From positions 416,001-480,000 of the forward strand of contig CAVXEP010000029.1 in assembly GCA_963760795.1 (NCBI GenBank): DNA of 64,000 nt, given 5' to 3'. A program made the translations under genes and the position numbers. Position 1 is the first letter of the stretch, and each line of letters starts with the position of its first letter. The notes under the pieces were generated by a model. The model saw only the letters and a program-made list of their open reading frames with translations, was not told where the DNA came from and made no database searches. The DNA comes from an uncultured delta proteobacterium. GTDB taxonomy: Bacteria > Desulfobacterota > Binatia > UBA9968. Positions 10,880 to 58,778 of the stretch are shown here, one piece after another.

Positions 10880-11881
10880 ATGACCAGAAGAGCGCTAATC
10901 ATTTTGCTGTTACTTTCACTCCGGGCGGATTTCGGCGCCGCCTACGGCCAGGCGACCAAGCTCATCGTTGCTTATGCATCTCCGGCGGCGACGTTCTGTC
11001 CCGGTTGGATCGCTCGGCGCGAGGGGATCTTCGCCAAGTACAATCTCGACGTCGAGATGGTTTTGATGCAAGGCGCGTCAGCCTATATGCCGGCGCTGGC
11101 CAACGGCAACATTCAGGTGCTTTATGGCGGCGGCACCGCGGTGTCGCGGGCGATTGCGACCAGGGATTTCGATGTCATGGTGATCGCCACCGAGACGCGC
11201 TACGTGCCGCTGCGCCTGATGGTCAATGCGTCGACGATCCGCACCCCGGCTGATTTGAAAGGCAAGCGCATCGGCGCCGGCCTCGCCGGCCTCGACGAGT
11301 ACGCGACGTTGCTTTATTTGGAAAAACTCGGCCTGGTCGTGGGAAAAGACGTGCAGATGGTCTATCTCGCCGGTGGCATTCCCAGCCGGGTGGCGGCGAT
11401 GAAGCAAGGGCTGATCGACGGCGTAGCGGTAAATCCGCCTAATGAATACGAGCTCGAAAAGGCCGGTTATCGCGAACTGGTCAACTTTCTCGATTTGAAG
11501 ATGCCCTACGCCGGCGTGCCGCACACGGTGAACCGGGCTTTTCGCGACCGCAATCGCCGGGTGCTGGAAGATTATATGACCGCTCACGTCGCCGGCATGC
11601 AATTGTTTCGCACTAATAAACAATTGGCTTTCAAAGCGATTGTAGAATTAACCCGGCAAAAAGATCCGGTGATTCTCGAGCGCACCTACGACACGTATTA
11701 TAAACAGTACGAAGCCATCGACGGTCTGCCGCTGCCATGGCAAGCCGGTATCGAGAGCATGATCACCGGCTTCCACGAACGCTTCAATCCCCAGGGCATC
11801 AAAAACCGCGATGCTTCGGGTTCTCTCGATGCGTCCTTCGTGCAGAAAGCTGCCGAGCGGCTAAAGCTCGGCAAAAAATAA
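10880..11881 (+). CDS. ABC transporter substrate-binding protein (NMT1/SsuA-like)
   Basis: Signal peptide, WIARREGIFAKYNLDVE and DLKGKRIG. Its 3' end is duplicated at 17291-17445. Confidence 0.9.
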   Translation: MTRRALIILLLLSLRADFGAAYGQATKLIVAYASPAATFCPGWIARREGIFAKYNLDVEMVLMQGASAYMPALANGNIQVLYGGGTAVSRAIATRDFDVMVIATETRYVPLRLMVNASTIRTPADLKGKRIGAGLAGLDEYATLLYLEKLGLVVGKDVQMVYLAGGIPSRVAAMKQGLIDGVAVNPPNEYELEKAGYRELVNFLDLKMPYAGVPHTVNRAFRDRNRRVLEDYMTAHVAGMQLFRTNKQLAFKAIVELTRQKDPVILERTYDTYYKQYEAIDGLPLPWQAGIESMITGFHERFNPQGIKNRDASGSLDASFVQKAAERLKLGKK

Positions 11882-12001
11882 GCCAGAACGGGCAGTAGGT
11901 CGTGCGCAAGCCGCGCAAGCATTGCGCGTTAGCAGTGCAAAGCACGCAAAAAATAACCCAGAATTTTCCGGCGACGGCTACGGCATTTACAGGAGGAGTG
12001 C

Positions 12002-13054
12002 ATGCAGCAGTTTATCAAGTCGGTGTTTTTTCCCGTCGCGCTTTGGCTCTGTGGCGCAATTGCCGCATCGGTGGCCGTGATTCTCTGCGCTTTCGTTACC
12101 GTGCAGGCGGCCTCGCCGCTAGCGAGAGCTGTCATAAGCTATCCCAACGCCAACCCTCGGGTCGCGCCGCTTTGGATCGCCCAGGATCTGGATTTCTTCA
12201 GCAAGTACGGAGTCAAGGGCGAGGTGGTATTTGTCCGCAACAACCAGTCGCTCATCGCCGGGATAGCCGCCGGCGATATCGATGTCGGATACACGGGAGG
12301 CGCCACGGTTATCGGTGCGGCGGCAGGCGGTCTGGATCTGAAAATGGTTTCGAGTTTTGCCAGCCGCGGCCGGGGCTACTTGGTCGTGCGGCCGGAGATT
12401 TCCACGCCGGCCGATTTGCGCGGTAAACGGTTCGGCGTGATCAGCATCGGCGGCGCGCAGTGGATGTACGCGATGCTCGCCCTCGAGCAGTTTGGCTTAA
12501 ATGCCGTCAAGGACCGAGTTCAGTTCCTCATTATCGGCGATCCGACGGCGTTGGCTCGCGCTTTGGAAGCAAACCTGATCGACGCGACGGTTTTCACCAC
12601 GCCGAGCTACAATGCGAAACTCAAACAACAAGGCTTGAATATGCTCGCGGAACTGACGCCGCCGCTGGCCACGACCGGCATCGTCGCGAGCAGGAGTTTC
12701 ACGCAGAAGAATCCTGAAACCCTTGAGAACATTATGAAGGCATTGATCGAGGGTCTGACCTTCGTCCTGGCTCCCGGCAACAAATCACAGGTGATCAAAA
12801 CGCTGATGAACCGTTTCAAGATCTCCGATGCGTCGCTCGTCGAGGCGGAGTACGCCGATGCCATGAAAGACCTGGAGCCCAAACCTTATCCCGCGGCCGA
12901 GGGTGTTAGAAATATGCAACGACTCATGCAAGTGCAAAATCCCCGGCTCGCCAACATTAACCCTGCGAGCCTCATCGATAGCACCTTCGTTCGCAAGCTG
13001 GATGAAAGCGGCTTCATCGGCCAGCTCCAAGCACGCTACGGGGAGCGGCGATAG
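12002..13054 (+). CDS. ABC transporter substrate-binding protein (NMT1/SsuA-like)
   Basis: AGGAGG RBS, PLWIAQDLDFFSKYG, DLRGKRFGV, KPYP and RKLDESGFI. Paralog of the gene at 9059. Confidence 0.9.
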   Translation: MQQFIKSVFFPVALWLCGAIAASVAVILCAFVTVQAASPLARAVISYPNANPRVAPLWIAQDLDFFSKYGVKGEVVFVRNNQSLIAGIAAGDIDVGYTGGATVIGAAAGGLDLKMVSSFASRGRGYLVVRPEISTPADLRGKRFGVISIGGAQWMYAMLALEQFGLNAVKDRVQFLIIGDPTALARALEANLIDATVFTTPSYNAKLKQQGLNMLAELTPPLATTGIVASRSFTQKNPETLENIMKALIEGLTFVLAPGNKSQVIKTLMNRFKISDASLVEAEYADAMKDLEPKPYPAAEGVRNMQRLMQVQNPRLANINPASLIDSTFVRKLDESGFIGQLQARYGERR

Positions 13055-13095
13055 CGACGTGGCATAACCGTAAGAACGCTCCCGAACGAGGGGAA

Positions 13096-14115
13096 CTATC
13101 GCTGATTGTAAAGCACTTCGATGAAGCCACTTGCTTCGAGTTCCTTGATGAATCGCAACTCGACAAAGTCCGTCGGGCGCGCCTCTTTGCCTCTGTCGCC
13201 GAGGGACTCCAAAACCGCCTTAATACCCTCCAAAGAAGGATATTGGTTTCGCGGCAGCTTATCGTCGCCAACCGACACATCATAGCTTTTCTCGAGCACG
13301 GCCGTGTCCTTAAAGCCGCCCATGAGCTGCGTGAAATATTTTAAGCCGGTTTTTCTGTCGCGCTTCATGACATGCACCGCTTCTACTTGGGACTTCACGT
13401 AACGGCGCACGACATCCGGGTGCTCTTTGATGAAGCGTCGAGTGGTCACGGGCGCGACATTTTGAAACGGCAACGCGCTCACGTCGGCTAAAATTCTGAA
13501 GCCTTCTTTTTCTGCGGCAAATACTGTCGGTGGGTTAAGCGATGTGGCCTGAACCCGCCCGCTGCGCAAAGCCGCCAAGCGCTCGGGCGTACCCCCGACC
13601 GCGATGATCGAAACATCTTTGGCGGGATTGAGCCCAAGCTTTCTGACGGCCAATTGCGTCGCAGTGTACGAGCCGCCGGAAAGACCCGCAGCGCCGATGG
13701 TCGCGCCTCTCAGCTGTTCGGCCGACTTTATACTTGGATGGCCCACCAGCCAGTAGTCGAGACCGACGTAACCGCCGGCGACATAAACGGCGCCTGAACC
13801 GCCGAGACTACTCTGCAGCACCGCAGGGGCCGCGGCTTGAATTAATCCCACTTCACCGGAAATAAGCGCCATCGTCGACACCGCGGCCTGAGCGCGGATG
13901 ACTGTAACGTCGAGCCCGTTCCGGGCAAATATTCCAGTCTCCTTCGCCAGAACCACCGGCAGATTGATCGGGCCCACGCCGGTATAACTGACCGTCAGTT
14001 TCACCGGCTGCGCCCGGGTCTCCGAAAGAAACAGCGTGAGGCTTAAACAGATAGAAATCGCTGCGAATAACATGGGCATCGATCTCAACGCGTTGGTCAA
14101 GGTATTACTCGCCAT
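13096..14115 (-). CDS. ABC transporter substrate-binding protein (NMT1/SsuA-like)
   Basis: LAKETGIFARNGLDV, GGTPERLAALRSGRVQA, YPSLEG and KELEASGFI. Start uncertain. Confidence 0.9.
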   Translation of the reverse strand: MASNTLTNALRSMPMLFAAISICLSLTLFLSETRAQPVKLTVSYTGVGPINLPVVLAKETGIFARNGLDVTVIRAQAAVSTMALISGEVGLIQAAAPAVLQSSLGGSGAVYVAGGYVGLDYWLVGHPSIKSAEQLRGATIGAAGLSGGSYTATQLAVRKLGLNPAKDVSIIAVGGTPERLAALRSGRVQATSLNPPTVFAAEKEGFRILADVSALPFQNVAPVTTRRFIKEHPDVVRRYVKSQVEAVHVMKRDRKTGLKYFTQLMGGFKDTAVLEKSYDVSVGDDKLPRNQYPSLEGIKAVLESLGDRGKEARPTDFVELRFIKELEASGFIEVLYNQR

Positions 14116-14454
14116 TGGTTGCCGTCCATATTTTCTCTGATCCATTCTAATAGACCAGCCCACGCTCCAGCATATCCGCACGGTCGTCCGCACTGCCAAC
14201 AGAAACGACTATGGCAAAGGTCTGCTACGCCAACACTACCTGGAGCGGCACCGGTCTGAATCAAATCGTTCGCGTGGCTCCCACTAGTTGATCCACCCCT
14301 CTGCACATTTTATGCTCTCGGAATATGGCAGGGCTGTGTTTGCGTGGCCATTAGTAGCGGGTGTCTCAGGAGGAAAATCTATGTTTCCGAGTAAACGCTG
14401 TGATTCGTTCGTCTACCGCCGGTGCAGAATTGACGGTCGAAATCTTATTGCCAG

Positions 14455-15609
14455 TTGGCTATCGCCCATTGTCTCAAACTGTCTCTGCTCCTTGTCGGAC
14501 TCGCGGGGTGTGCGTCCGGGCCGGCGCAAGGTCAGGCGCCGCGCTCGCCAACGCCAGCCTCGGTGAATGGCATCGTTCAAGTCCAGTCGATCGCCAAAGG
14601 GCTCGAACATCCCTGGAGCCTCGCCATCCTACCGGACAAGCGCATGCTTGTCACTGAACGTCGAGGGCGATTGCGCGTGGTGGGAGCGGACGGACGCGTC
14701 TCCGAACCGCTCGCCGGAATCCCACAGGTTTACGCAAGCGGGCAGGGCGGACTTCTCGACGTGGTACTGAGTCCGGGATTCGAAAAGGACCGGCTCGTCT
14801 ATTTCTCTTTCGCCGAATCCGGTGATGGCGGCGCAGCCACCGCGGTCGCCCGCGGGCGGTTCGGCGAGCGCGGGCTCGAAAACACCCAAGTGATCTGGCG
14901 GCAGCAGCCTAAGGTCGGTGGCTCGAATCACTGGGGGTCGAGAATTGTTTTTCGTCCCGACGGCACGCTGTTCGTGACTTTAGGCGAGCGGTTCAACCAT
15001 TCCGAGAGAGCCCAGGATTTATCCGCCACACTCGGCAAGGTCGTGCGTATCAACCCGGACGGCTCGGCGCCGCGCGACAATCCGTTTGTCAATCGCGACG
15101 GCGCGCGCCCGGAGATCTGGTCGTATGGGCATCGCAACGTCCAAGCGGCCGCGCTCCATCCCGAGACCGGCCAGCTCTGGACCGTGGAGCATGGCGCCCG
15201 CGGCGGCGACGAACTGAACCATCCCGAAGCGGGGAAAAATTACGGCTGGCCCGTCATCTCTTACGGTACCCACTACACTTTTTTGAAGATCGGCGAGGGC
15301 ACGGTGAAACCCGGGATGGAACAACCGGTCTACTATTGGGATCCGGTGATCGCGCCCTCTGGCATGGCGGTTTATACGGGCGATCTATTCGCCGGCTGGA
15401 AGTACAACTTTCTTATCGGCTCGCTTACTCCGGGGGGATTGGTGCGGCTGGTGATGAAGGACGGCAAAGTCGTGCAAGAAGAGCGTTACCTGGGCGATTT
15501 ACGTGAACGCATCCGCGACGTGCGCCAGGCGCCGGATGGATCACTCTATCTTCTCACCGACTCGCGCGACGGGCAGATACTGCGCATAACGCCGGCAGCC
15601 AACCGTTGA
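14455..15609 (+). CDS. PQQ-dependent sugar dehydrogenase (YliI/Asd family), probable lipoprotein
   Basis: LAGC lipobox, GLEHPWSLA, GQGGLLDV, IWSYGHRNVQ, EHGARGGDELN, IAPSG and RIRDV. Confidence 0.92.
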   Translation: MAIAHCLKLSLLLVGLAGCASGPAQGQAPRSPTPASVNGIVQVQSIAKGLEHPWSLAILPDKRMLVTERRGRLRVVGADGRVSEPLAGIPQVYASGQGGLLDVVLSPGFEKDRLVYFSFAESGDGGAATAVARGRFGERGLENTQVIWRQQPKVGGSNHWGSRIVFRPDGTLFVTLGERFNHSERAQDLSATLGKVVRINPDGSAPRDNPFVNRDGARPEIWSYGHRNVQAAALHPETGQLWTVEHGARGGDELNHPEAGKNYGWPVISYGTHYTFLKIGEGTVKPGMEQPVYYWDPVIAPSGMAVYTGDLFAGWKYNFLIGSLTPGGLVRLVMKDGKVVQEERYLGDLRERIRDVRQAPDGSLYLLTDSRDGQILRITPAANR

Positions 15610-15796
15610 GTGATAAAAAAGCAGAGAATTTTTTCTCACGTCCCGCGCGTCCGCGGTAAACATCCGATGACATGCTGTTCTTCGTGTTGATATTAGAAAC
15701 CGGGGATATTGACTGCGATGAACGCAAAGGACGAAAAAATTAAACCTCGAGCATTAAATCCAATGCGCCCCGGTCCGGACCCACACACGCCGCGGG

Positions 15797-17156
15797 TTAT
15801 TTATCGAGCGAGGCCGCCGCGTGCTCTGCCGCTCTCATGCCTAGACCCAAAGAAGCGAGCAACCCGTTGCCCGGAAGATAGCCCTCCAAACCCTTGCCGG
15901 ATACGCCGCCGGCCACTCCGCCGCCGGCGTAAAGGTTGGGGATGATCGAGCCGTCGGCGCGCAGGACTTGGCCGTCGGCGGTTACCTTCAACCCGCCTTG
16001 TGTGTGGTACAGCGCCACCGTGACTTTGATGCCATAGAAGGGTCCTTGGAGCGGTTGCGGCAGCGCGCGTCCGAAAGCGTCAGTTGCCGCCGCTTGCCGC
16101 GCTGTCGTTATACTCTTGAATGGTTCGCTTCAGGCCTTCGGCGTCGATGGCCAATCTTCCTGCGAGTTGTTCCGGCGTGTCGGCTTTGAGCAAAAGCCCC
16201 GCGTCGAAGAAGCCCGACAGGTTTCTCAGGCCCGGCGCGTTTCGATGCAGCTGGTAGATACGCTCGTCGCAGATTTCGTAGGCCCGCTTGCCGGGCAGAT
16301 CGAGCATTTTGATGCCGAGCCCGCCGGGATATCGGGTTTCATCGACGAAACGCCTGCCGCCGACGTCGACCATGATGCCGCCGGATAGAGCCACCTCGGG
16401 CGCCACCGCGCGTTTTCCCGGACCGATGTATGCGGGGTACGGCTGGAAGGCGCCCATGTTTTCCGTCACCGCGCCGATCGCCAAACCCATCTTGATGCCG
16501 TCGCCGGTGCTGCCGTGGTGACCTGGAAAAGGAATGTCCACCGCTTTGGGAATGTAGCGGGCCAACAACTCCGCGCTCGCGCCAAAGCCGCCCGAGGCGA
16601 GAATAGTTTTTCGCGCCGTGAGCACGCCATCTTTTGTCGCCACGCCCGTTACCGCGCCGCCGGTTTCCTGTTGGAGCGACAATACCGGCGTCGAGAAGCG
16701 CACCTGGATATATTTCTCCCGCTCGACTGTTTCGAAGAGAAAATCGGTGATGGTTTTATCCGCCTTCCACGAGTGCGATCGCAGCGCCCCATGACCAAAG
16801 GCAAACTCGCCGATTTGAAATTCGATGCCCGCCATATCGGTCAGAAAATCGGCCACGCGCCCGGAAGTTTCCGTGAGCCGCCTGGTCAGGACTCGATCGC
16901 TCTCGTTGTTGTTCCGGCGCAGGATATCCTCGGCGTAGAGTTCCGGACTGTCCGCGATACTCAACTCGCGCTGGCGGCGGCTGCCGGCGGCGCGGATGCC
17001 TTTGGAAGAGAAAGCGGTCCCGCCTCCCGGTTTGTCGGTCTTCTCCAACAGCAGCACCCGCACGCCCTTTTTCGCCGCCACCAGCGCGGCCATGAGACCG
17101 CACCCTCCGGCACCGATGACGAGGATATCGCTGACCACCGAATCTAATTCCTGCAT
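15797..17156 (-). CDS. FAD-dependent oxidoreductase (fumarate reductase/flavocytochrome c flavin subunit-like), with an apparent +1 frameshift near 16087
   Basis: VIGAGGCG, LASGGF and STGDG in ORF 16080-17180. The frame then continues as ATDAFGR..PFYGIKV..HTQGGL..NLYAGG..GNGL into ORF 15797-16018. Confidence 0.85.
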
Positions 17157-17290
17157 CGAACCTCCAAACAGCATAGCCACAATATTTGAAAGCCGTCCGG
17201 AATTGCAACTTGCTGCTGGATTCCAGATGAACTGACTTTAGGTTGAAGCATTCGTTTCGCGTAGACACGATACAGGAAAACGAAAATGGC

Positions 17291-17445
17291 CCGCCGCCTT
17301 GGCAAGCGGGCATCGAGGCCATGCTCACCGGCTTCCACGAGCGCTTCAATCCACAGGGCATCAGAAACCGCGATGCCTCGGCTTCTCTCGATGGGTCTTT
17401 CCTGCAGAAAGCCGCCAGTGGCTGAAGTTCGGGAAGAAGTAAGCC
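17291..17445 (+). pseudogene. Displaced 3'-end copy of SBP gene 10880-11881
   Basis: About 85% nt identity (hand count ~22 mismatches plus 1 gap in ~156 nt) to 11729-11884. Reads PWQAGIEAMLTGFHERFNPQGI..KK*. No 5' part. Confidence 0.88.
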
Positions 17446-18635: not shown

Positions 18636-18636
18636 G

Positions 18637-19641: not shown

Positions 19642-19908
19642 TGTAAATACTCCTAATCGTTTCTTGAAGATGACTGAACGAGCGGAGCTTACTCAGAGCG
19701 CGGTACCGATGTCAATTGGGAGAAATAACGGGGTTGGGAACCTTTCGTGATGCTTCGCAGCGCTAGGAGTTTCAAGTCTTGCGATGCGACAAGGCAGCTG
19801 GCTCAAGCAACGGAAATGGAATTTGGGGTCGAGCTCGAGTGTTGACTAAGACGGCCAAGTTTTGAAGACGAAGGGTTTGTTGGGGCATGTCCCCGTTGCG
19901 ACTAGGAC

Positions 19909-20145
19909 TCAGGTGCCGCAGAAGGTGCGGTAGCAGCCTCGCCCTTCCGGTGCAGGTTCGGCGAAAGCGGCAAACTCCGGTTGTTCGTCGAAGGGGCAAG
20001 ATGGAATTTTCAGAAGCGTTTCGAGAGGCGCGTAATCGGCGCGTTCCACTGCGGCGCTCAAGGCTTCCTCTACTCGATGATTGCTCGCAATGAACGCGGG
20101 ATTGACCCGCCGCATGGCTTGTGCCTGTTCCGCGGGCGTAACCGA
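19909..20145 (-). pseudogene. Displaced 3'-end copy of selO/ydiU
   Basis: 237 nt, ungapped, 23 mismatches (~90%) versus 23359-23595. Reads MRRVNPAFIASNHRVEEAL..YRTFCGT*. Confidence 0.92.
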
Positions 20146-20217
20146 CCCTCGCCGGTGCGCCTGTTTGGCCTTCCGGCTAACAACAAAGGATCGTATTAAT
20201 GCTCAGCGAAAGCCCGT

Positions 20218-22014
20218 CTAGGGCTGGGTGACGCCCGCAAACGTCACCAGGTCCGCCACGGTAAAATCTCCAGCTGCGGCAGATGGCAGAAATGGAGTGA
20301 ACCCGCCTGTTACGTTCAGGTACGACGTGGCATCTCGCTTCAACATGCGGACGAAAGTCTCGGCCACGATCCTGCCGCCCACCGGACCCAGTTCGTTTCC
20401 TCCGCCGATCACGGACGCTTCGCGTAAGATGTAGTACCACAGCGGCGTTTTCTGCAGCAGGATGCCACCGTTAGAATTCAGCAGACTCACCTCCGTCGCT
20501 GGTAGCCCCTGGGTCAGTTGCGCTGTTGTCATCGGTGTGATCCCGAAGGAATTCGCCATGCCCTTGCCGCTGGGTAAACCTAGCGCCAAGCCACGCCTAA
20601 GGTTCCGCGTCGCGAGCACCGCCATCATTCCCGTGAATCCCGGCAGCGACTCTAACCCCGCCGCCATGAAGCTGTCGATTGTGCGCGCCTTATTGTGAAC
20701 CGGGACGGGCACACCGGTATCGAATAAGGCGTTGAAGTCCACCACCCAATTTGAAAAAACCGGAAGCCGCGGATTGCGGATGAATTCGAACACCTGTCCC
20801 AGTGTTGCCGCCGGAAAGTTGAAATTTACCCAGTATGTGTCCCGGATCATGCTATGGCCGAAGCGGTAGGCAGCCACAGCAAACTCCACGGGCATGCGGA
20901 ACGAACTGCCCTGCGGCGCCACTACCGTCGAAAGAGCGTTGGTCACCATCGCTGCGCCACAAATTCGCTTGAGGAAATCGTTCACCACGGCCCATTGATA
21001 GTGATGTGTCACGATCTTTTTAGCCTCGGCGAAGATATCGCCGGCGAACAAAGCCGCTAGTAGCAGTTCGACGACTTTGTTATGGAACCTCAACATGGCG
21101 TGGTGGAATTGCGCGATGATCAGGTTTTCGTCATTGCGCGGATCTCCAATCACGGCTGTGTTCGTCCCCCCAATGCGTGGCACGTCGAACTGGGATTGCG
21201 TTACCATTCCGCCAGGAGTCCCGTTGTTGCTCGGGCCGCCCGGTCCGGTATTTGTGTTCGTCCCGAGCTGGAACTTCACTGCGGTCGTCGGACCCGTGGA
21301 AGGGAATGCGTAGAGAAACGGATCGAGCGCCGGTCCCCTCCCGTACACGGAATCGAGATCAAGCGCGGGAGTACGCATGTTGTGGATTGTGTTCGCGTCC
21401 GTCGCGCTATCAAGCGACGACGAGACATCCAGGGTAATGTCATGGTCCACGAATTGGCCGAAATATGTGTAACCCGCCGGGATCGCCGACACGCCCTGAT
21501 CCGCCGAATTATGCGATCCCGGATTCGGATCGCGACCCGGATCGCCCATCAACCCACCTAGTTGGCCCAATAACGACTGATTCACTGAGTTGAAAGCCAG
21601 CTTCGTTGCGCTCCTAACCGCAGCGCTCGACATGTAGCCAAACCTATCGGCGCACGGCGAGGCGAGCCACGGAAACGGAAACCACGTCAGCGATATCTTA
21701 CTGCCATGTAATCTCCGCTGTTCCGGCTTCAGCGCCCGCAGACTACTTTTGATTTCTTCCGGCATTTTCGCCACAGGCTGTCCGGCGTCCCGCTTGATAC
21801 GGTTCACCGTTTCCACAAGTCGCTCCACGGGAACGCTGGGTTTGAGATTCAGCTCCGCAAGCTGCTCCCGCAGCTGACGCACGGAAACCGGAGCTGGATT
21901 CACAAACCTTTTCGGAGCCGCCGTTTCTTTGAGCAGTGCCAACAACCTTGCAGGAATCGCAGGGGTCTCCGTGGGGGAACTACTCTCCTTGGTTCGCGGT
22001 TTTCTTGTAGCCAT
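20218..22014 (-). CDS. Heme peroxidase (peroxidase-cyclooxygenase / animal heme peroxidase superfamily)
   Basis: PAGYTYFGQFVDHDIT, DLDSVYG, GDPRNDEN, HHYQW, EFAVAAYRFGHSM and TPLWYYILRE. AAGGAG RBS. Confidence 0.9.
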   Translation of the reverse strand: MATRKPRTKESSSPTETPAIPARLLALLKETAAPKRFVNPAPVSVRQLREQLAELNLKPSVPVERLVETVNRIKRDAGQPVAKMPEEIKSSLRALKPEQRRLHGSKISLTWFPFPWLASPCADRFGYMSSAAVRSATKLAFNSVNQSLLGQLGGLMGDPGRDPNPGSHNSADQGVSAIPAGYTYFGQFVDHDITLDVSSSLDSATDANTIHNMRTPALDLDSVYGRGPALDPFLYAFPSTGPTTAVKFQLGTNTNTGPGGPSNNGTPGGMVTQSQFDVPRIGGTNTAVIGDPRNDENLIIAQFHHAMLRFHNKVVELLLAALFAGDIFAEAKKIVTHHYQWAVVNDFLKRICGAAMVTNALSTVVAPQGSSFRMPVEFAVAAYRFGHSMIRDTYWVNFNFPAATLGQVFEFIRNPRLPVFSNWVVDFNALFDTGVPVPVHNKARTIDSFMAAGLESLPGFTGMMAVLATRNLRRGLALGLPSGKGMANSFGITPMTTAQLTQGLPATEVSLLNSNGGILLQKTPLWYYILREASVIGGGNELGPVGGRIVAETFVRMLKRDATSYLNVTGGFTPFLPSAAAGDFTVADLVTFAGVTQP

Positions 22015-22480
22015 ACGATCTCCTTGTTTTGTTATTGTCGAAGTTAAGCTCGAAGCGAAAACATAATTGTAATTGAGTTAGACTTTGACGAATTAGCAAA
22101 AGTAGTGAAGCTCTCGAAGCATGACCTTAAGCTGTTCCCGAGCTACGCCAACAGCGTTAGATAGAGTTCGTTTAGAGTTGGCATGGATCAATTCTCTATT
22201 TTAGTTTTGATGGTAATGCCCATAACAAGCCCGCATGATTTTTCGGCTGGGACTTTACGCCCCGGTGTTCACTAGTCCAACATGTGGCAACTAATGATAG
22301 ACTGTTATCAATTAGTAACACCGCATCCGTGGTCTCTTTTTGGATTTACTCTGAATAAAATGTTACCTCAGTACTGCGCTAACGCAAGTATAGTTCCATT
22401 GAATTTCAATTGTGACTTTGCGGAAAGCACAAAAGTACCCATCTCGATTTGCCTGTGACGTTGATTGCTCGTCTACTACG

Positions 22481-22529
22481 TTTACAAAACTTCTACACGT
22501 CGTTTACAAAACCGTCGCCAAAGTTTACG
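22481..22529 (+). promoter_or_regulatory. Phased TTTACA direct repeats (OmpR/KdpE-type operator candidate)
   Basis: TTTACA at 22481, TCTACA at 22492, TTTACA at 22503 and TTTACG at 22524, about 11-bp period. Confidence 0.45.
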
Positions 22530-22771
22530 CGTCGTTGCGCTCTACCGCTCTCCTCTCAATAACGTAGTCCGAAACCTGGGGCATTAAAAGTCTACCATCG
22601 GAATTCTCGGCGCGGTGCCCGACGCGCTGGGCAACCGTTTATTCTGTGCGCGAAGCTTTTGCACCGCTGATCCAGCGCGTCGCCGAGGCCTAGTCCCGCT
22701 ATGTAATTTCTTAGGTCGGCGGCCGTCGATCTATCTCGACTGAAATTGCCGTTTGTGATAGGGGATGGCGA

Positions 22772-23098
22772 ATGCGAATACCGCGACGATTTGTTCGTTT
22801 CGTCTTATTCATGCTGCCGTTTGCTTTCGGCTGCCAAACCATGCGCAGCGAAACCACGGTGGCAATTCCCGCCGTGGAAACGGAAACGCCGCAAGATCAG
22901 ACGCTGTCAAAGTCCGTGCGGGCCCGGCTGCTCGCGGATAAGAAAGTGGATCTATCCGGCATCAAGGTGGTATCCAACAACGGGACAGTCTACTTGAGCG
23001 GAGTCGTGAGTTCTCTAGACGCACGCCAGCAAGCGATCAAGCTCGCCTGGGAAACGCACGGGGTGCAGAGCGTCGTCAATGGTCTTGAAGTTCAATAA
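22772..23098 (+). CDS. BON (OsmY-like) domain lipoprotein
   Basis: AFGC lipobox, then DQTLSKSVRARL..IKVVSNNGTVYLSGVV..GVQSVVNGL. Confidence 0.88.
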   Translation: MRIPRRFVRFVLFMLPFAFGCQTMRSETTVAIPAVETETPQDQTLSKSVRARLLADKKVDLSGIKVVSNNGTVYLSGVVSSLDARQQAIKLAWETHGVQSVVNGLEVQ

Positions 23099-23358
23099 AG
23101 ACGGCTATGACTTTGGGCAAGTTCTCGATGTGAAAGCTGCGAGTCTCATTGCTCGTAAGAAAGCGGGGACCGGCTCTTTCAATCTAAACAAATCTGGGTC
23201 GGATTCTTTAACCGTTCCAACTCTCCGAATAAGCTCCTCGCTTGTATCATCCGGTCTCCATGGTCACAGTCTGTTCGACTCGGTATCGCTCGAGGGTCAG
23301 ATGGGAACCGCTTGAGGATTGTTCCAGCTTGTTCACGCGTGTCTTTCTGTCGCATTAC

Positions 23359-24855
23359 TTAGGTGCCGCAGAATGTTTGATAGCACCCTTGCCCTTCCGG
23401 TGCAGGTTCGGCAAAAGCGGCAAACTCCGGTTGTTCGTCGAAGGGGCGTGATAGAATATTCAGCAGCGTCTCGAACGGCGCGTAATCGGCGTGCTCCACT
23501 GCGGCGCTCAAGGCTTCCTCTACTCGATGATTGCGCGCAATGAACGCGGGATTGACACGGCGCATGGCTTGCGCCCGTTCCGCGGGCGTAACCGATTCGC
23601 GCGCAAGCCGCGCTCGCCAGTGATCACTCCAGAGATCGTAGGCCGACGCATCGGCAAACAGCGCGCGAATGCGTTCTTCTTCGCCTAAGGCCGCATCGGC
23701 GAGATAGCGGAAGGCCAACGTGTAGTCTACTTTGTTGTTCGCCATGGCGGTGAGAAACCCCGTGGCAAGATTTAGATCGGCCTCGTCTTCACTGACCATT
23801 CCGAGCTTGGCGCGCATGCCTTGAAGCCAGTGGCGTTCATATAGACCGGGAAAGCCATTGATCACCTCGGTGGCTTGCGCGATGGCGCGGTTATTATCGG
23901 CATCGATCAGCGGGAGAACCGTCTCCGCCAACCGCGCCAGATTCCACTGCGCGATGCTTGGCTGATTGCCGAATGCATAGCGGCCGCGCGTGTCGATGGA
24001 GCTGAAAACTGTTGCCGGGTCATAATGATCCATGAAGGCGCATGGGCCATAGTCGATGGTCTCGCCGGAGATCGCCATGTTGTCGGTGTTCATCACGCCG
24101 TGGATGAAGCCGACATGCATCCAGCTAGCGACCAGCGCCGCTTGGCGGTCGCATACGCTCGCAAGCAATTCTAGGTAAGGGTTCGCGTGGTTTTTCAAAT
24201 CCTGATAGTGGCGATCGATTACATAATCGGCCAGGCGCCGCACCTTGTCCTGCTCGCCGCGGGCGGCGAACAATTGGAAGGTGCCGACACGGATGTGGCT
24301 CGCAGCCACGCGCGTCAAGACCGCGCCCGGCAGCGCGGTCTCGCGATACACCGGCTCGCCCGTGACCACTGCGGCAAGCGCTCTTGTCGTCGGGATCGCA
24401 AGCGCGTGCATCGCCTCGCCGATCAAATATTCACGCAACACCGGCCCGAGTGCGGCCCGGCCGTCGCCGTTGCGCGAAAACGGAGTGGGCCCCGAGCCTT
24501 TGAGCTGAATATCTCGGCGATGTCCGTTGCGGTCGATTACCTCGCCCAGGAGCAGCGCCCGGCCGTCGCCAAGTTGCGGCGAGAAGCCGCCGAACTGGTG
24601 GCCGGCGTAGGCCTGGGCCAGCGGCACCGCGCCCTCGGGTGTCTCGTTGCCGGCAAAGATTCGCGCGCCTTGCTCGGAATCGAGAGCCTCGGCATCGAGT
24701 CCCAACTCTTCGGCCAAGTCACGGTTGAGCTTAACCAACGCAGGCCGCGCCACCTGCGCCGCCTGCCAGGGCACGTAGAAGCCCTCAAGCTCGCGCGCAT
24801 AGGTATTGTCGAAGGCGAATTTTCCGGCGGCAGGGTTGTTTGGGACATGCGTCAT
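23359..24855 (-). CDS. selO: Protein adenylyltransferase SelO (YdiU)
   Basis: AQAYAGHQFG, LGDGRA, LKGSG.TPFSR.GDGRA, GFIHGVMNTDN, IDYGP and TFCGT. Confidence 0.96.
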   Translation of the reverse strand: MTHVPNNPAAGKFAFDNTYARELEGFYVPWQAAQVARPALVKLNRDLAEELGLDAEALDSEQGARIFAGNETPEGAVPLAQAYAGHQFGGFSPQLGDGRALLLGEVIDRNGHRRDIQLKGSGPTPFSRNGDGRAALGPVLREYLIGEAMHALAIPTTRALAAVVTGEPVYRETALPGAVLTRVAASHIRVGTFQLFAARGEQDKVRRLADYVIDRHYQDLKNHANPYLELLASVCDRQAALVASWMHVGFIHGVMNTDNMAISGETIDYGPCAFMDHYDPATVFSSIDTRGRYAFGNQPSIAQWNLARLAETVLPLIDADNNRAIAQATEVINGFPGLYERHWLQGMRAKLGMVSEDEADLNLATGFLTAMANNKVDYTLAFRYLADAALGEEERIRALFADASAYDLWSDHWRARLARESVTPAERAQAMRRVNPAFIARNHRVEEALSAAVEHADYAPFETLLNILSRPFDEQPEFAAFAEPAPEGQGCYQTFCGT

Positions 24856-29100: not shown

Positions 29101-29475
29101 GCGATCCGGCCGAGAAGACGCGCGGCATCGCGACTATCTGTTGGTTCGCCAACATTGTGCATCCCTCGTTCCAGCGCACTATGCCGCATGAGCGTTTTGC
29201 CGAAGGCGAAGCGGCGCAAGCCGTAGTAAAGGGAAACGGGCGAAAATCGTTCAAGGCCAATTGCCAGGAGATCGACTCAATGTTCCACGGACAAGAATGG
29301 GTCATGGGCAGCGAGTTGACGCTCGTCGATCTCTACGCGCTGGTTACTGCGGCTGGGGCGCGCCGCTGATTTCCCCATGAAGGAGCTCAGCGTCTACACG
29401 GCATGGCAGGAGCGTATGATGAAGCGCCCAACGGTGCGCACCAGTATGGAGAGCGAAGAGAGCGTTTCTGCGTAA
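29101..29475 (+). pseudogene. 3'-half remnant of a beta-class-like glutathione S-transferase
   Basis: RDPAEKTR..WFANIVHPSF..ERFAE..SFKANCQEIDSM..WVMGSELTLVDLYALV, then after a frameshift FPMKELSVYTAWQERMMKRPTV..*. Confidence 0.75.
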
Positions 29476-29586
29476 AGTTCGTTGGCGCATACTCCTTCTG
29501 CTGACAGGGGAATTGCCTGTTGGTAGGCATGGTCAATGCCGAATGTCAAAAATATAGATTGACCCTAATTCCTATAAATATGAGGC

Positions 29587-37648: not shown

Positions 37649-37759
37649 AAGCGTTGCGTGTAGCATTGGTCAATAGCGAAAGCAATGAGATCAGGCCTGG
37701 AGAGGTCGCACATTTCTTGATTTGATTCTATGCGAAGCATGGCCTTTCTTGCTTTTGCC

Positions 37760-37978: not shown

Positions 37979-38041
37979 TTGCGACGCAAACGAGCAGATC
38001 GCGCTTGAAAGTTAACGCGGGCTCGTCCTATGCTCGCCGGC

Positions 38042-42719: not shown

Positions 42720-43111
42720 CTTGCCGAAGGCGCAGGCCGCGGTAAAGGAAAGCGGGCGGAAATCGTTCTGGACCAATTGCCAGGAAATCGACGCCAATGG
42801 TCCAGCGAAAAGAATGGATCTGGGGCAGCGAGTTTACGCTCGTCGAACCTTCCGCTCTGGTTTTTTATAGCAGGGCCGTGCGCGGCGGATTTCCCATGAA
42901 TGAGCTCATCGCCACCTGCCATGACTTGATGAAGCGGCCAACGACTCGGAATAATGTCGACGCCGAGCAGAACGTTTCGCGATCAAATCTTCACTCAGTT
43001 GAGACTCTTGAATCGTGGACGTTGAAGCCAAGCACACCGATGATCAACTGGATTCACCTGGTGCAGGTGTGAGCGAGACAACAAAATAACTCAATACTCA
43101 GGCCTAACCCT
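42720..43111 (+). pseudogene. 3'-end remnant of the beta-class-like GST plus its downstream flank
   Basis: AQAAVKESGRKSFWTNCQEIDA, frameshift, then EWIWGSEFTLVEPSALVFY..FPMNEL..MKRPT. Homologous to the fragments at 29101 and 34773. Confidence 0.75.
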
Positions 43112-43482: not shown

Positions 43483-43866
43483 ATGCAACTAAAAGAATTT
43501 ATCAATTTCCCGAAAACAGATGATCCGGAGAAAAAAACGAGCATGGGTGGCGCGTTGGCGGCCGAAACCCGCATCACAGGTTTATTCGGAGACCCGGAGC
43601 AAGCCGCAGAAGCGGTCGTACAGTTGAAAGGTGCGGGCTTTGCCGACGATAGGATTGCCGTCGCCATGCAAGACAGCGCGGCTCAGAAGAACTTTATCGC
43701 CGAAACCAAAGTGCACACGGCAGCTTCGGATGAGATTCCCAGCATTCCGGAACTCGAGGCCGGGCAGGTGCTGCTTTTGGTCGAGGCCGCCGATCAGGCT
43801 GCGCTGGCATTGGAAATCATCAATCGCAATCGAGGTGTCACCGGCGGCGTGCGCATGTCTACTTAA
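43483..43866 (+). CDS. Hypothetical general-stress (YflT-like) protein
   Basis: ITGLF..EQAAEAV.QL..AGF.DDRIAV and GQVLLLV. GGGGAG RBS. Confidence 0.6.
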   Translation: MQLKEFINFPKTDDPEKKTSMGGALAAETRITGLFGDPEQAAEAVVQLKGAGFADDRIAVAMQDSAAQKNFIAETKVHTAASDEIPSIPELEAGQVLLLVEAADQAALALEIINRNRGVTGGVRMST

Positions 43867-46797: not shown

Positions 46798-46959
46798 TGA
46801 GCGCCGTCGACGGACAGGCAGAGATGCAAGCGCGATCGCCAGACTGCTCAAGGAATTCATAAAGCACTGTATGACGCGCGCCTCTGGGAAAGGGTATTGG
46901 GGTCGAGCCAGTGTATTGACTTATTTCACGTTGGCATCGTTGGACAAGTGTTCTCCACC

Positions 46960-47043
46960 TCACGACCCAGCATCCAACTCAGGGTAGTGGCGAAAGATCC
47001 CTTGCTGATTGAAAGGGAAGCGCCGGTCGGACGCGAGAGGCGC
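46960..47043 (-). pseudogene. Displaced 3'-tip copy of GST gene 47707-48423
   Basis: 84 nt, ungapped, about 11 mismatches versus 47707-47790. Reads LASDRRFPFNQQGIFRHYPELDAGS*. Confidence 0.85.
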
Positions 47044-47102
47044 ACCAGCAAACGTCTGGATTGCCGCCAGTTAGTGTTCCTAACTATCGGTCCACCGGCT
47101 TT

Positions 47103-47531
47103 TTACTTGAGCGCTTTCCTCAAGAGGCTGACCGCGCTATCCGCGTCCGCCGCGCTGTCGAAAGCCAAGTAACTTACGGAGCGCCGCCCCAGCGCCGCCG
47201 CCGAAAGACCACGCAAGTTGATCCCAGCGTCGGCGATGGCTTTGGTCATTTTTGCGCCGAGTCCCGCTTTGTCGGGGCCGTCAACCCGCACCGAATGGAG
47301 GCTATCGGTGGTGGCGAAGCCTGTCCCTTGGGCCGCGCTTTTCTGTTTTGCTCCTTTGATTGGAGTGACGAAAACAACCCCTGAGCCAGGTTTGTCGGCG
47401 GCGCGGCGCGCGATTAGAAACTCAAGACTTGCGCCGGCATTACTTAAGGATTGTATCTTCTCGGCCAGCCCTCCCGGACGATCGGCGATTTCGCCTGCCC
47501 AAACGTCGACTTTCTTTACGCTATACGCCAT
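47103..47531 (-). CDS. ACT domain-containing protein (two ACT repeats)
   Basis: DRPGGLA...L..AGASLEF and DKAGLGA.....IADAGINL. AGGAGG RBS. Confidence 0.85.
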   Translation of the reverse strand: MAYSVKKVDVWAGEIADRPGGLAEKIQSLSNAGASLEFLIARRAADKPGSGVVFVTPIKGAKQKSAAQGTGFATTDSLHSVRVDGPDKAGLGAKMTKAIADAGINLRGLSAAALGRRSVSYLAFDSAADADSAVSLLRKALK

Positions 47532-47706
47532 GGTCATTCCTCCTTACTGTTTGGAATTAAGACGTAAAGCCGGTCGTAATACATTCGCGCGCCGGTCGTC
47601 AAGCCCAATTTGTCGCCCTGTTGGTCCTTAACTCTGTTGGCTAGCGACTCGGGGTACGAAGGCGGGTATTTTTCTTAAATCCACCTGTTGCCTTTCGCCT
47701 CTTACC

Positions 47707-48423
47707 TCACGACCGATCATCCAGCTCAGGATAGTGGCGAAAGATCCCTTCCTGATTGAAGGGCAAGCGCCGCTCGGAGGCGAGATACGCGGCGAGCCGG
47801 GGGCGCGCCGCGACTCGGTCGTGCAGCGCGATCACTCGGCGCTGTTTGCGTTCCTGCTTGGTCATCGCGCGGGGAAAGGCGTAGCGCAGCCCTTCGATCA
47901 TCTGGAACAGCGACAGATCGACGTAGGAAACCTTATTGCCGATAAGGACGCGGCCACCGTTGCGCGCCAAGACCTGCTCGAAGTAATTCAAAAACTTCGG
48001 CAGACGCTCGGCTGTGAAAATCACTGCGCGGCGCTTGGATTCACGCTTTTGATCTTCGTAATACAGACTACCTGCGATCGGATGATGGCTGTCATGAACC
48101 TCGCCGACCCAATCGGCGATGGTGAGTTGTAATTGATGGGCCCAAAGCCGGCCCGCGTCTGGTTTCGGCGCGAGGCCGAGGCGCGGGCCGAGGAAGAATA
48201 GAATGTTGGCGGTCTGGGCGATGACCACATTCCCGGCTTTTAAAAACGGCGGCGCGAACGGCGGCCGCTTGACCGACCGGCTGTCCATAAAGCGCGACAT
48301 CGCCGCCATCCCGCGCGGCCGGCGCGCGACTTCGAGGTAATCCGCGCCGGCGTCTTCCAAGGCGAGCCGGACGAATTCTCCGCGGCCCTGTATGCCGGGC
48401 CAATAATACAATTCGTAGCGCAT
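47707..48423 (-). CDS. Glutathione S-transferase
   Basis: YELYYWPGIQGRGEFVRLALE, PFAPPFL, IAQTANIL and SYVDLSLFQ. Confidence 0.93.
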   Translation of the reverse strand: MRYELYYWPGIQGRGEFVRLALEDAGADYLEVARRPRGMAAMSRFMDSRSVKRPPFAPPFLKAGNVVIAQTANILFFLGPRLGLAPKPDAGRLWAHQLQLTIADWVGEVHDSHHPIAGSLYYEDQKRESKRRAVIFTAERLPKFLNYFEQVLARNGGRVLIGNKVSYVDLSLFQMIEGLRYAFPRAMTKQERKQRRVIALHDRVAARPRLAAYLASERRLPFNQEGIFRHYPELDDRS

Positions 48424-52145: not shown

Positions 52146-52164
52146 AACAACCTCCTAAACATTG

Positions 52165-55078: not shown

Positions 55079-55393
55079 GATTCACCTCCGTATGAACTGT
55101 CTAGCCCAGACTATTCGCGGTAAAACTGCGATCGAGCTGCAACCCTTCCGGCACGAAGGCAAAGCAGTTGTGTCTTGAAGATGCCAGCGGGACGAGTTGC
55201 TTGTGCGATCAGCAGCGAAAAGGTCAAACATCGTGCCCAGCATCGAGCACAAGATGAAACATTCGCGCCAGTGCCTTCGTTCCTCCAGGGTTACACCTCG
55301 ATCGACAGAGTGTAATTAGGCTTCCTCGTAACATTAATCCCGGCGTAGCTTTTCACAGGGCCATGCACATTTAGCCGCCAATGCCGCTGAACC

Positions 55394-57100: not shown

Positions 57101-57373
57101 GAAGCCTCCTGTGCTGGTGAAATCGTTAAAGTCTCTCGGTCGGTCTTAGACCGGCGTGGGCAATCCTTCGGTTGCTATGAACTCGGTTCTGAGGTCGCTT
57201 ATAATCAACGTGGTTATCAGCTGTCAACGTCAAATCGAATCAAACCGATTTTCTCCCTCTCATGGATCTGTTGCTCGACTCCTGGTGTCATTCCGAGGCC
57301 CTTCAACTTTACTCAGGATGACAGCAATCAGACTTTTGCGGATTGCGACACAGTCTCGAAGCTCGGAAGTGCT

Positions 57374-58384
57374 TTAGCGATCCCAGCCATAAAGTCTCAT
57401 GGCGTTGGCACTGAGAATTTTATTTTTCGCACTTTCCGAAATATCCTTGCGTTCTTTAAGCGTCGAGACCATGTAGGGAAAGTTACCGTCCCAGTGGGGA
57501 TAATCTGACGCGAAAAGAATCACATCTTCGCCGACTCGATCGAGCACGAAGGGTAAAGTCGCCTCTTCCGGCTCCGCGGCGTAGAACCAGTTGCCGCGGG
57601 CCATGTATTCGCTGGGCTTGGCCTTGAGCAAGGGCGCCTCGGATTTTCGCTTCTCCCACTCTTCATCCATGCGATCCATCCAGTAGGGCACCCAGCCCGC
57701 GCCGCATTCGAGAAAGGCAATGCGCAGCTTGGGAAATTGTTCCGGCACGCCGCCATACATGAGCGCAGCACAATCGATCAGCGTCTCGATGGGGCGGCCA
57801 ATCGTATGCTTGAACAGAAAAGTATCGAAACGAATCTCGCCCGCCGGTCCCTGGCGGGAATTGTGCACCAGCAGCGGCACGTTGAGCCGCTGGATCTCCT
57901 CGTAGATCGGCCAAAATTCCGGCTTGCCGAGATGCTCTTTCATGCCAAAAGAGGCGATGGCGATTCCCGCCAGTGCGAGCTTGGTCACGGCACGATTTAC
58001 TTCTTCCACGGCGGCGGCGACATTTTGAAAGGGCACCAGAGCTACTCCCTTGATGCGCGGGCTTTCCTTGCAGTGTTCAGCGATCCAGTTGTTGTAAGCA
58101 CGGCAATACGCCGCTGCGTAGTCCTTTTCGGTAAGTTGGCTCATGTGAAAGGCGCTGGTCGGGAACAGCACTGAAGTATCGATGGTTTCTTTATCCATGT
58201 CACGAAGTCTCATCGCGACATCGCTGACCCTCAGCCCAAGCGTGCCATACATACTGGAGTCCCACTCGTCGCCGGGTAAAAGCGATCCGCGTCGTTTGCA
58301 ATAGGGCTCTTCCAAATGCGGTCTGATATCGGTATCGCGCTCCTGGACATGTCCGTCGGAATCTATGACTCTCAGAGTTGCCAT
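57374..58384 (-). CDS. Amidohydrolase family protein (Amidohydro_2), close paralog of 18637-19641
   Basis: IDSDGH, GPAGEIRFD, HTIGRP, FLECGAGW and FASDYPHWD. Confidence 0.92.
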   Translation of the reverse strand: MATLRVIDSDGHVQERDTDIRPHLEEPYCKRRGSLLPGDEWDSSMYGTLGLRVSDVAMRLRDMDKETIDTSVLFPTSAFHMSQLTEKDYAAAYCRAYNNWIAEHCKESPRIKGVALVPFQNVAAAVEEVNRAVTKLALAGIAIASFGMKEHLGKPEFWPIYEEIQRLNVPLLVHNSRQGPAGEIRFDTFLFKHTIGRPIETLIDCAALMYGGVPEQFPKLRIAFLECGAGWVPYWMDRMDEEWEKRKSEAPLLKAKPSEYMARGNWFYAAEPEEATLPFVLDRVGEDVILFASDYPHWDGNFPYMVSTLKERKDISESAKNKILSANAMRLYGWDR

Positions 58385-58571
58385 TTTAACCTCCTACTTC
58401 ATGCGAAGATTTCATGAACACGCTTAGCAATCTTCAGTTGTTGCGTACAGGCGTGATCGACCCGAGATCGCCGGCAACGGTCGCTTATGGCAATCACACA
58501 ATGCACCGGTGCGCTGGAAACGCTGGGCGTGTTTCACAGCCGCGCTTAAGTGCGTTCACGCGCTGAGCGAA

Positions 58572-58778
58572 CTATTCAAATACGTCCAACAGATTTCCCT
58601 CCGGGTCGCATAACTGGTGCTGGCCGTAACGGCAGCCCGCTAACAGGCGCATGACGACCTCATTTTCCGACGGTAAAATAGGTGTCTTGGGCGACATCCA
58701 TTCCGGGTCGACGCCGGTGAGGATTTCCAGATCCTTTTTAAAGTTCGCGACGCTTTCGACTTTGAAACCGACATGCTG
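58572..58778 (-). pseudogene. 3'-end remnant of a VOC family gene
   Basis: QHVGFKVESVANFKKDLEILTGVDPEWMSPK..LAGCRYGQHQLCDPEGNLLDVFE* aligns with the C-terminus of 7943-8755. No start or 5' part. Confidence 0.78.

Follow-up and report, generated by a model that had tools for sequence, protein, structure and literature searches.

Intact genes followed by cargo and displaced copies of their own 3' ends: a widespread architecture in a Binatia genome that may reflect 3'-anchored insertion

Introduction

Ordinary genes in the genome of an uncultured bacterium of the Binatia (Desulfobacterota; G000, an assembly of 6.58 Mb in 35 contigs) are repeatedly found intact and followed downstream by unrelated cargo and then by a second, displaced copy of their own 3' end in the same orientation. 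This architecture was noticed in a stretch of 64,000 nucleotides (G000:C29:416001-480000, hereafter the window), which holds many NMT1- and TctC-type binding proteins, amidohydrolases and oxidoreductases (Pfam, 53 open reading frames, ORFs). Genome-wide, two scans combined yielded 36 cases behind 35 parent genes, with cargo of 126 to 15,351 nt. The explanation favoured here, at about even confidence, is that DNA was inserted repeatedly, each time with a homologous anchor in the 3' part of a gene and a non-homologous joint at the far end. It is preferred because 3' fragments are in excess downstream of their parents, displaced ends are stacked, empty sites exist in relatives, recombinases are missing from the cases, the inner edges vary and the divergence of parent and fragment is of the allele type.

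Outside toxin loci and restriction-modification (RM) systems, little is documented of additive gene gain that involves no integrase, transposase or tRNA target. The 36 scars described here, together with the stacked scars and empty sites of relatives, form a countable and datable record of gene gain. The pattern resembles known routes of gene gain but is unusually widespread in this genome. Genus-wide searches covered 31 genomes, the unpublished G004 among them, and no specific claim depends on G004.

Three parent genes with displaced 3' ends in the window

The first-pass annotation, made from the letters of the window, had paired three genes with downstream fragments of themselves, namely a solute-binding protein (SBP) gene, selO and a glutathione S-transferase (GST) gene. 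All three pairs are real, with parent and fragment on the same strand at 83-90% identity and the fragment downstream. The parts of the three loci are listed below.

10805..11881, plus strand: intact NMT1-type SBP gene, parent 1 (Pfam NMT1/NMT1_2)
11882..17290, no strand: cargo 1, 5.4 kb between the SBP parent and its fragment
12002-13054, plus strand, and 13096-14199, minus strand: SBP genes of cargo 1 (Pfam)
14455-15609, plus strand: glucose/sorbosone dehydrogenase gene of cargo 1 (Pfam)
16080-17180, minus strand: FAD_binding_2 gene of cargo 1, profile 1-340 of 414 (Pfam)
17291..17445, plus strand: displaced SBP 3' end, parent positions 925-1080 of 1077, 85% (refined nucleotide alignment)
23359..24855, minus strand: intact selO, parent 2 (Pfam SelO, 1.8e-120)
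20153..23358, no strand: cargo 2, 3.2 kb, with a haem-peroxidase-like gene (20218-22014, minus) and a BON-domain gene (22772-23098, plus) (Pfam)
19907..20152, minus strand: displaced selO 3' end, parent positions 1261-1499 of 1497, 89-90%
47707..48423, minus strand: intact GST gene, parent 3, a repeated target (Pfam GST_C_3)
47044..47706, minus strand: cargo 3a, 0.66 kb, with an ACT-domain gene at 47103-47537 (Pfam ACT)
46957..47043, minus strand: displaced GST 3' end no. 2, parent positions 639-720, 87-89%
37742..37980, minus strand: displaced GST 3' end no. 1, parent positions 490-734 of 717, 83-84%, frameshifted, 9.7 kb downstream

At the SBP locus, repeat finding matched 17291-17416 to 11729-11854 at 87%, and the fragment 17291-17445 is common to G000 and the related genome G019. 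Fragments drift about neutrally, because the identity of this one between the two genomes (79%) is below that of the third codon position of genes (86.5%, with 96% and 97% at the first and second positions), and they are old enough for sharing between species. G019 lacks 11934-14346, a clean absence with no repeat at the joint. A contig of the public soil run X1 that joins 11785 to 17349, the form that recombination of parent and fragment would leave, was discounted, having 34 letters on one side and a depth of 2.6.

At the selO locus, 19907-20152 was paired with 23357-23602 by repeat finding (246 nt, 89%) and refined alignment gave 19907-20145 at 90%, the homology ending 2 nt past the stop codon. 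The fragment is present in G003 and absent in G019, which does have the cargo. G003 has the same order as G000, namely selO, BON, peroxidase and a selO 3' end followed by a second BON copy; in seven other genomes, homology around selO is limited to the selO gene alone. The cargo is 92-97% identical among G000, G003 and G019 and appears younger than selO, because third-position identity is 0.89 for the cargo versus 0.73 for selO. The divergence of the G019 selO is greatest in its final 250 nt. Among the 24 other genus genomes searched, each one with a match has a single full-length selO, the copy of G008 being split across two contigs. A tree of selO 3' ends was considered as proof that the fragment belongs with the 'resident' alleles and was set aside, the fragment not being placed there. 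The 598-aa animal-haem-peroxidase-like product of 20218-22014 is, for its part, encoded by a gene 94-97% identical among G000, G003 and G019, above the conservation of its neighbours.

Misassembly was a possible flaw of the first-pass pairing. The joint at 20152, between the peroxidase gene and the selO fragment, is bridged by contigs of the public soil runs X1 and X7 from two studies, and the joint between the selO stop and BON by one contig from public runs, which may include the source sample. The selO junctions are thus seen in independent contigs as well as in the independent genome G003.

At the GST locus, repeat finding matched 46957-47043 to 47704-47790 (87%) and 37852-37930 to 47803-47881 (86%), and refined alignment placed 46957-47038 at parent positions 639-720 (89%). 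G019 lacks exactly 37731-37954, with a contiguous joint. The unit of GST fragment plus ACT gene occurs also at G019:C6 and at G013:C18, where it lies apart from the GST gene. G013 has in order GST, a cargo block, a 3' fragment (282-308 nt), a second block and a 3' fragment (234-237 nt). Among the 31 genomes, 12 of 13 partial GST matches reach at least position 704 of 717, the remaining one covering 1-562; 11 of these 12 span less than 60% of the gene and the twelfth spans 160-707. The 5' edges of the GST fragments differ (438, 482, 490 and 639). A stepwise insertion history for the blocks of the GST region at 33-48 kb was attempted and dropped, no simple series fitting the orders of G000, G003, G019 and G013. 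Adjoining the GST anchor, 48717-50036 encodes a 439-aa protein with an N-terminal TIR domain that may be a defence or signalling gene.

Over its length, the window shares synteny with G019:C6 and G003:C9, and in part with G013:C11, although gene-sized blocks are present, absent or reordered. Synteny breaks against G019, G003 or G013 coincide with nearly every window fragment. The indel joints between the window and its relatives are clean, without target duplication.

Excess of 3' fragments downstream of their parents

Fragments were counted genome-wide by searching the non-ORF remainder of G000 against 4559 long, well-scoring ORFs called with a simple ORF caller. In the blastx set (at least 60% amino-acid identity, after removal of pieces within 100 nt of contig ends and of six dispersed-repeat subjects), 80 fragments were 3' and 53 were 5'. 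Of these, 42 had their best parent within 20 kb, every one of them co-oriented with it: 26 were 3' and downstream, 5 were 3' and upstream, 7 were 5' and upstream and 4 were 5' and downstream. At 30% identity and above, before these removals, the numbers were 234 3' and 228 5'. An independent nucleotide scan (at least 75% identity, at least 50 nt, at most 3 places) gave 58 3' versus 23 5' fragments. Near parents it gave 28 3' pieces downstream and 3 upstream, with 5 5' pieces upstream, the mirror class, and 2 downstream (binomial p=5e-6 for 28 vs 3 and p=7e-5 for 28 vs 5). As a built-in control, internal pieces that touch neither gene end were 11 downstream versus 12 upstream in the same scan. 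The 3' bias claimed by the first-pass annotation therefore extends to the whole genome, in which 5' and 3' fragments are neither symmetric nor randomly placed.

Proximity and co-orientation are not special by themselves, because a paralogue of at least 60% identity is the best match of 595 genes, lies within 20 kb in 150 and is co-oriented in 147 of these 150. It is the asymmetry that is special. At 80% identity and above, a nearby paralogue was found for 10 of 152 genes, versus about 18 near fragments at least 80% identical to their parent (hand count).

In pair alignments, homology ended within 4 nt of the parent stop in 18 of 27 cases. Far fragments ended at the stop codon in 17 of 49, less often than near ones. 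No common motif was seen by eye at the 5' edges or just after the stops of 27 pairs, which were given no formal motif search. A hairpin or palindrome as break site at the 5' edges was rejected, with a median folding-energy percentile of 0.64 and 10 of 37 edges below the 25th percentile, which is no enrichment. Retention of fragments as promoters of the next gene found no clear support either, the next gene being co-oriented in 21 of 36 cases and convergent in 15. The cargo is mixed and lies on both strands; it includes asparagine synthase, binding proteins, amidohydrolases, a carrier-protein enzyme and three toxin-antitoxin pairs.

The first-pass annotation had seen no local integrase, and this was borne out at every scale that was searched. 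Pfam detected no integrase or transposase in the 53 window ORFs, no integrase or resolvase in 124 ORFs of 20 loci, where one DDE transposase was found, and no HUH (Y2) transposase family among the 53 and 124 ORFs together. The genome has 13 matches to PF00589, at about nine loci. All are more than 20 kb from each of the 36 cases, and the one closest to the window on its contig is about 290 kb away; resolvase PF00239 has no match. Homologues of Ku and ComEC are present in G000. The Ku homologue lies at G000:C29:252547-253101 (PF02735, E 1.6e-48); among 14 control genomes, Bacillus subtilis alone has one.

Divergence of parents and fragments

Identities of parent and fragment repeats span 74-99%. 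Mismatches between parent and fragment fall at codon positions 1, 2 and 3 in the numbers 123, 88 and 266 (28 cases), and orthologues of G000 and G019 differ at rates of 0.037, 0.026 and 0.135. The third-position share of the differences is 56%, versus about 43% under local duplication by our own arithmetic, which fits a divergence that would be mostly of the selection type plus a small neutral part. This bias suggests that most of the divergence dates from a time when both copies were parts of working genes. The bias is pooled over cases, short cases alone not being separable into alleles and copies of their own target. It speaks for the earlier proposal that the copies are alleles rather than fresh duplications.

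Stacked ends and empty sites in related genomes

The stacking of displaced ends is clearest behind a LigXa_C-like gene (C35:4291-4914), which has 4 co-oriented downstream fragments in G003, 4 in G018 and none in G014. The 5' edges of these fragments vary from 271 to 555; among the 31 genomes, 9 of 11 partial matches of this gene end at the stop and none of the 11 holds the 5' end. In G014, a sequence R1 follows directly behind the gene, while in G003 the same R1 lies behind the displaced end f271, so that G014 provides an empty site. A further block S is placed after R1 in G014 and before the f271-R1 unit in G003. Three fragments of G018 are 96-99% alike; they are 84-87.5% identical to the gene of G018 itself and 91-94% identical to the alleles of G000, G003 and G013.

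A second empty site was found for a case on contig C13 of G000, the counterpart gene of G019 being followed directly by the flank of the fragment. The fragment of G000 and its flank align with G019 through the stop codon and equal the empty-site sequence, and the fragment is therefore the resident end, displaced. Empty sites in relatives were thus found twice. The cargo of the C13 case is an MNT/HepT toxin-antitoxin unit (1940-2626 of L015, G000:C13), which is 85% identical to a unit of G013 (4451-5138 of L048, G013:C8). The sequence common to both genomes starts exactly at the HepT stop codon, and in G013 the unit lies between another binding-protein gene and the 343-nt 3' fragment of that gene.

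In the same way, a Meth_synt_2-like gene has at least about 29 short 3'-terminal matches in 14 of the 31 genomes among the matches listed (hand count), with 3 5'-side matches among those listed, 2 of them at contig ends. An alignment of 17 copies revealed sub-families with 40-90 nt in common past the stop, and the 5' edges are clustered near position 1300, many within about 20 nt. Some units therefore take in downstream sequence and are copied within arrays. G000 (C30:47747-121917) and G013 (C31:161403-225752) each have four co-oriented copies of the last 100-190 nt of this gene, spread behind it over 60-73 kb. A GC-rich palindromic stretch is found at about position 1300, near many of the fragment starts.

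Five relatives were examined for full-length paralogues at the fragment sites, as simple decay would leave, and none was found; instead, the relatives had the same fragment or a different block there, or lacked the sequence cleanly. No circle junctions were found among contigs, which cannot show rare forms.

Other fragments and features of the window

The first-pass annotation had counted at least ten orphan 3' fragments. At least eight of them hold, while the piece at 2571-2828 is weak (37% aa identity, blastx against the 4559 ORFs) and that at 34783-34872 is a repeat of the tail of the 42720 piece. It listed no 5'-type pieces; three are present, and one of them is solid. The remaining fragments are as follows.

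29103..29433, plus strand: GST-like 3' fragment of the plus series, best parent C5:109180-109881, aa 109-219 of 233, 58-60%
42720..43016, plus strand: second GST-like fragment of the plus series, with its tail repeated at 34783-34872 (repeat D7)
29584..29769, plus strand: orphan SBP 3' fragment, aa 296-357 of 357 of C1:20491-21564, 77% (blastx)
43522..43863, plus strand: orphan 3' fragment, aa 151-265 of 265 of C29:212885-213682, 77% (blastx)
58575..58775, minus strand: orphan 3' fragment, aa 226-290 of 292 of C19:74467-75345, 65% (blastx)
55088..55294, minus strand: solid 5' fragment, the counter-example to '3' only', aa 1-69 of 411 of C21:31685-32920, 64%

The fragment at 29103-29433 is tied by repeats D9 and D10 to 42729-42862 and is located at a synteny break with G019. 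The other two 5'-type pieces are 62924-63028, which is weak, and 8889-9008, which belongs to a dispersed repeat of about 150 nt. This repeat (8845-9049, about 150-190 nt) has many copies in G013 and G019 at 80-85% and occurs at six or more G000 loci. ORF ends overlap it, and it therefore imitates a 5' fragment of C12:246603-248831 (aa 14-54).

A 1.1-kb segment specific to G000 (5569-6662) carries one ORF (5596-6624, minus strand) without Pfam family and occupies all the space between two convergent stops (Amdase at 5568, SBP at 6663). Homology to G019, G003 and G013 is lost within about 10 nt of both stops. The FAD_binding_3 gene at 35075-36308 and the solute-binding gene at 53444-54455 are each represented by two overlapping ORFs, and these frameshifts may be sequencing errors. 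Finally, 39441-42110 encodes an 889-aa protein that combines a GAF domain, DUF3417 and a glycogen-phosphorylase-like domain.

Weighing the explanations

In the favoured insertion, incoming or ectopic DNA would carry a homologous copy of the 3' part of a gene together with other genes. It would pair with the resident gene and form one homologous joint inside it, and the far end of the insert would connect, without homology, to a more upstream site of that gene, either by end joining or by prior circularization followed by a single crossover. The product would be an intact and possibly hybrid gene, the cargo, the old 3' end of the resident and its old downstream flank. Repeats of the event at the same gene would stack several displaced ends, and the direct repeats would then permit homologous excision, duplication and reshuffling of units of cargo plus fragment. 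No dedicated recombinase would be needed. Homology anchoring, the non-homologous second joint and the route of DNA entry are what we infer from the architecture.

Several points weigh against this insertion. All the proposed mechanisms are 5'/3' symmetric and the bias of 28 to 5 requires an added assumption, which may be selection against duplicated promoters and 5' pieces. The insertion also gives no reason why homology stops at most 4 nt from the final base of the stop codon in 16 of 26 cases, and homology continues 17 to 150 nt past the stop in 8 of the 26 G000 cases. At selO, the repeat of G003 extends 640 nt beyond the stop into the second BON copy (880 nt, 84%), the selO tree groups the G003 fragment with the G003 parent (99/97), and the G000 fragment is no nearer to the selO of G019 or of the outgroup than the G000 parent is. 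Such clustering within G003 would point to gene conversion or to separate events. In the C13 case, the last 81 nt of the parent are 96% identical to G019 versus 94.5% for the rest of the gene; the breakpoint that the first-pass annotation led one to look for near the 5' edge of the fragment was not detectable within these 81 nt and was given up. The same MNT/HepT cargo stands in this architecture behind two different anchor genes, which pure homology-driven cassette hopping does not predict. Moreover, G000 is 89% complete with 6% contamination, the gene calls come from our own simple ORF caller and a parent is the best match within the same genome. A last point comes from homology-facilitated illegitimate recombination (HFIR), reportedly described in 2002 by de Vries and Wackernagel and by Prudhomme, which combines one homologous anchor with one non-homologous joint. 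As far as the available part of Kirchberger 2017 (PMC5361080) describes it, HFIR deletes recipient DNA beside the anchor, whereas here this DNA is duplicated.

Local segmental (tandem) duplication, or insertion with long target duplication, would instead copy sequence of the same genome, the redundant parts being lost differentially. Some cases fit it better, but as the general explanation it is unlikely. In its favour, the G003 selO repeat includes the second BON copy, f271 is 96-99% identical to its own parent in G003, the position of block S in G014 versus G003 is as expected from duplication and reciprocal loss, and the last 81 nt of the C13 parent are not foreign-looking. The same toxin-antitoxin cargo with a duplicated target in two genes also matches the class of events described for RM systems in the available part of PMC2853133. 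Yet duplication should give 5' pieces upstream and 3' pieces downstream in equal numbers at birth, and 5 versus 28 were observed. Neither the repeats that end at the stop (16 of 26), nor the third-position bias (56% versus about 43%), nor the G018 fragments that are nearer to foreign alleles than to the resident gene are predicted by it. The gene capture anchored at 3' ends that was proposed at first pass is partly supported, by its geometry and by the genome-wide excess, with exceptions such as G003 selO and f271 that resemble local duplications.

Decay of tandem paralogue arrays, in which co-oriented full-length copies would lose the 5' part of the downstream copy, is quite improbable. Tandem co-oriented paralogues are indeed frequent (147 of 150 near ones), and G019 shows how a simple deletion (window 6767 to about 10049) can leave 3' remnants, two in this instance, from divergent SBP genes. 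In addition, fragments far from their parents also end at the stop in many cases (17 of 49), and 5' and 3' counts are alike at low identity (228 versus 234). However, decay should bring no asymmetry between upstream and downstream, as seen for internal pieces (11 to 12) but not for 3' pieces (28 to 3), and nearby paralogues of at least 80% identity (10 of 152 genes) compare with about 18 near fragments of such identity. Matching genomes have a single full-length selO, no examined relative has a full-length copy at a fragment site, and four displaced ends behind one gene would presuppose five copies in tandem, with erosion always from the 5' side.

Little credence is likewise given to tyrosine recombinases, acting in trans or since lost, that would have integrated site-specifically at gene 3' ends and left decayed or cis-mobilizable elements accreting in tandem. 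The attL/attR sites at protein-gene targets do show direct repeats of 3' ends, similarity up to the stop codon, restoration of the gene, accretion in tandem and a 3' bias, and the starts of many Meth_synt_2-like fragments are clustered near 1300. Against it, 0 of 36 cases has an integrase within 20 kb, and about nine tyrosine recombinase loci without any serine recombinase would have to serve 35 target genes. The edges differ within one gene, as in GST (438/482/490/639) and the LigXa_C-like gene (271 to 555), with no edge motif in common by eye.

An artefact of metagenome assembly, which the completeness, contamination and 35 contigs of G000 might suggest, is scarcely credible, as the same architectures are present in diverged sequence in the separately assembled G003, G019, G013 and G018 and public-run contigs bridge both selO-region joints.

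If the scars do arise by homology-anchored insertion, the 3' ends of genes could be general 'safe harbours' for new DNA, which could explain recombination hotspots without mobile-element genes, and a search for displaced 3' ends could pick out recently acquired DNA in metagenome genomes. That the joints fall so precisely on the stop codon is a mechanistic clue. A bolder extension, put forward tentatively and with low confidence, is an 'integron without integrase' in which the 3' ends of many ordinary genes would be attachment sites and circles of cargo plus 3' fragment would excise and re-enter. Homologous recombination between the direct repeats would release such circles, and their re-entry, in the cell of origin or in a different one, would be behind the same gene or at an older fragment. 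In this way, accessory genes would accumulate and be shuffled in arrays of tens of kilobases, and the joints at the stop codon may hint at a stop-proximal targeting or trimming step.

Comparison with known systems

A limited literature search found no publication that describes the pattern genome-wide for ordinary genes, which is not proof that none exists. Among known systems, the pattern fails defining features of HFIR, of RM-unit insertion, of Rhs and type VI secretion system (T6SS) displacement, of integrase islands, of integrons and of ISCR capture. Its architecture fits that of HFIR, in that foreign DNA would enter via one homologous anchor and one joint without homology. The joints at the 5' edges of the fragments have no repeat.

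Integrase islands at the 3' ends of tRNA and other genes restore the gene, displace its 3' end, leave tandem partial copies and have empty sites in relatives. In the same way, direct repeats of the 3' end of the target gene, a restored gene, arrays and empty sites are found here. Unlike integrase islands, there is no integrase in cis, the crossover is variable, 35 targets lie in one genome and the cargo is small. In place of a fixed crossover core, edges vary and are partly clustered near 1300 in one family. As for integrons, no integrase lies nearby and the cargo is on both strands, no attC model search having been made. Rolling-circle capture by ISCR/IS91 relies on a HUH (Y2) transposase, of which the 53 and 124 ORFs hold none.

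Displacement of C-terminal ends is reportedly known for Rhs and CdiA from Jackson 2009 and Poole 2011. For T6SS effector-immunity modules, sequential displacement was described and HFIR proposed (Kirchberger 2017, PMC5361080). As in the Rhs and T6SS loci of that account, in the part available, displaced 3' ends are strung out behind an intact gene, the product of successive insertions without integrase. There, a conserved 5' core serves as anchor, the 3' tips are unrelated toxins and the cargo is immunity genes (PMC5361080). In contrast to Rhs, contact-dependent inhibition and T6SS loci, the parents here are ordinary genes (SBP, selO, GST, oxygenase, methyltransferase-like and similar), the cargo is arbitrary and unrelated to them, and each displaced end is a near-identical allele of the end that the gene now has.

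Insertion with long target duplication is said to go back to Nobusato 2000. In the available part of Furuta 2010 (PMC2853133), RM units insert in this manner without a mobility gene, with direct repeats of 30 to 420 bp, a target that is single-copy in the empty-site genome and some repeats overlapping the 3' end of a gene. In the present cases too, repeats longer than 30 bp are single-copy in the empty-site genome and no mobility gene is involved (C13 versus G019; the LigXa_C-like gene of G003 versus G014), and the C13 case with its toxin-antitoxin cargo fits this type of insertion. In the same part of that source (PMC2853133), RM units have almost identical repeats without a tie to gene ends, and the cargo is RM genes. 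The repeats described here are 74-99% identical, mostly end at the stop codon and are stacked in arrays, with any gene as cargo.

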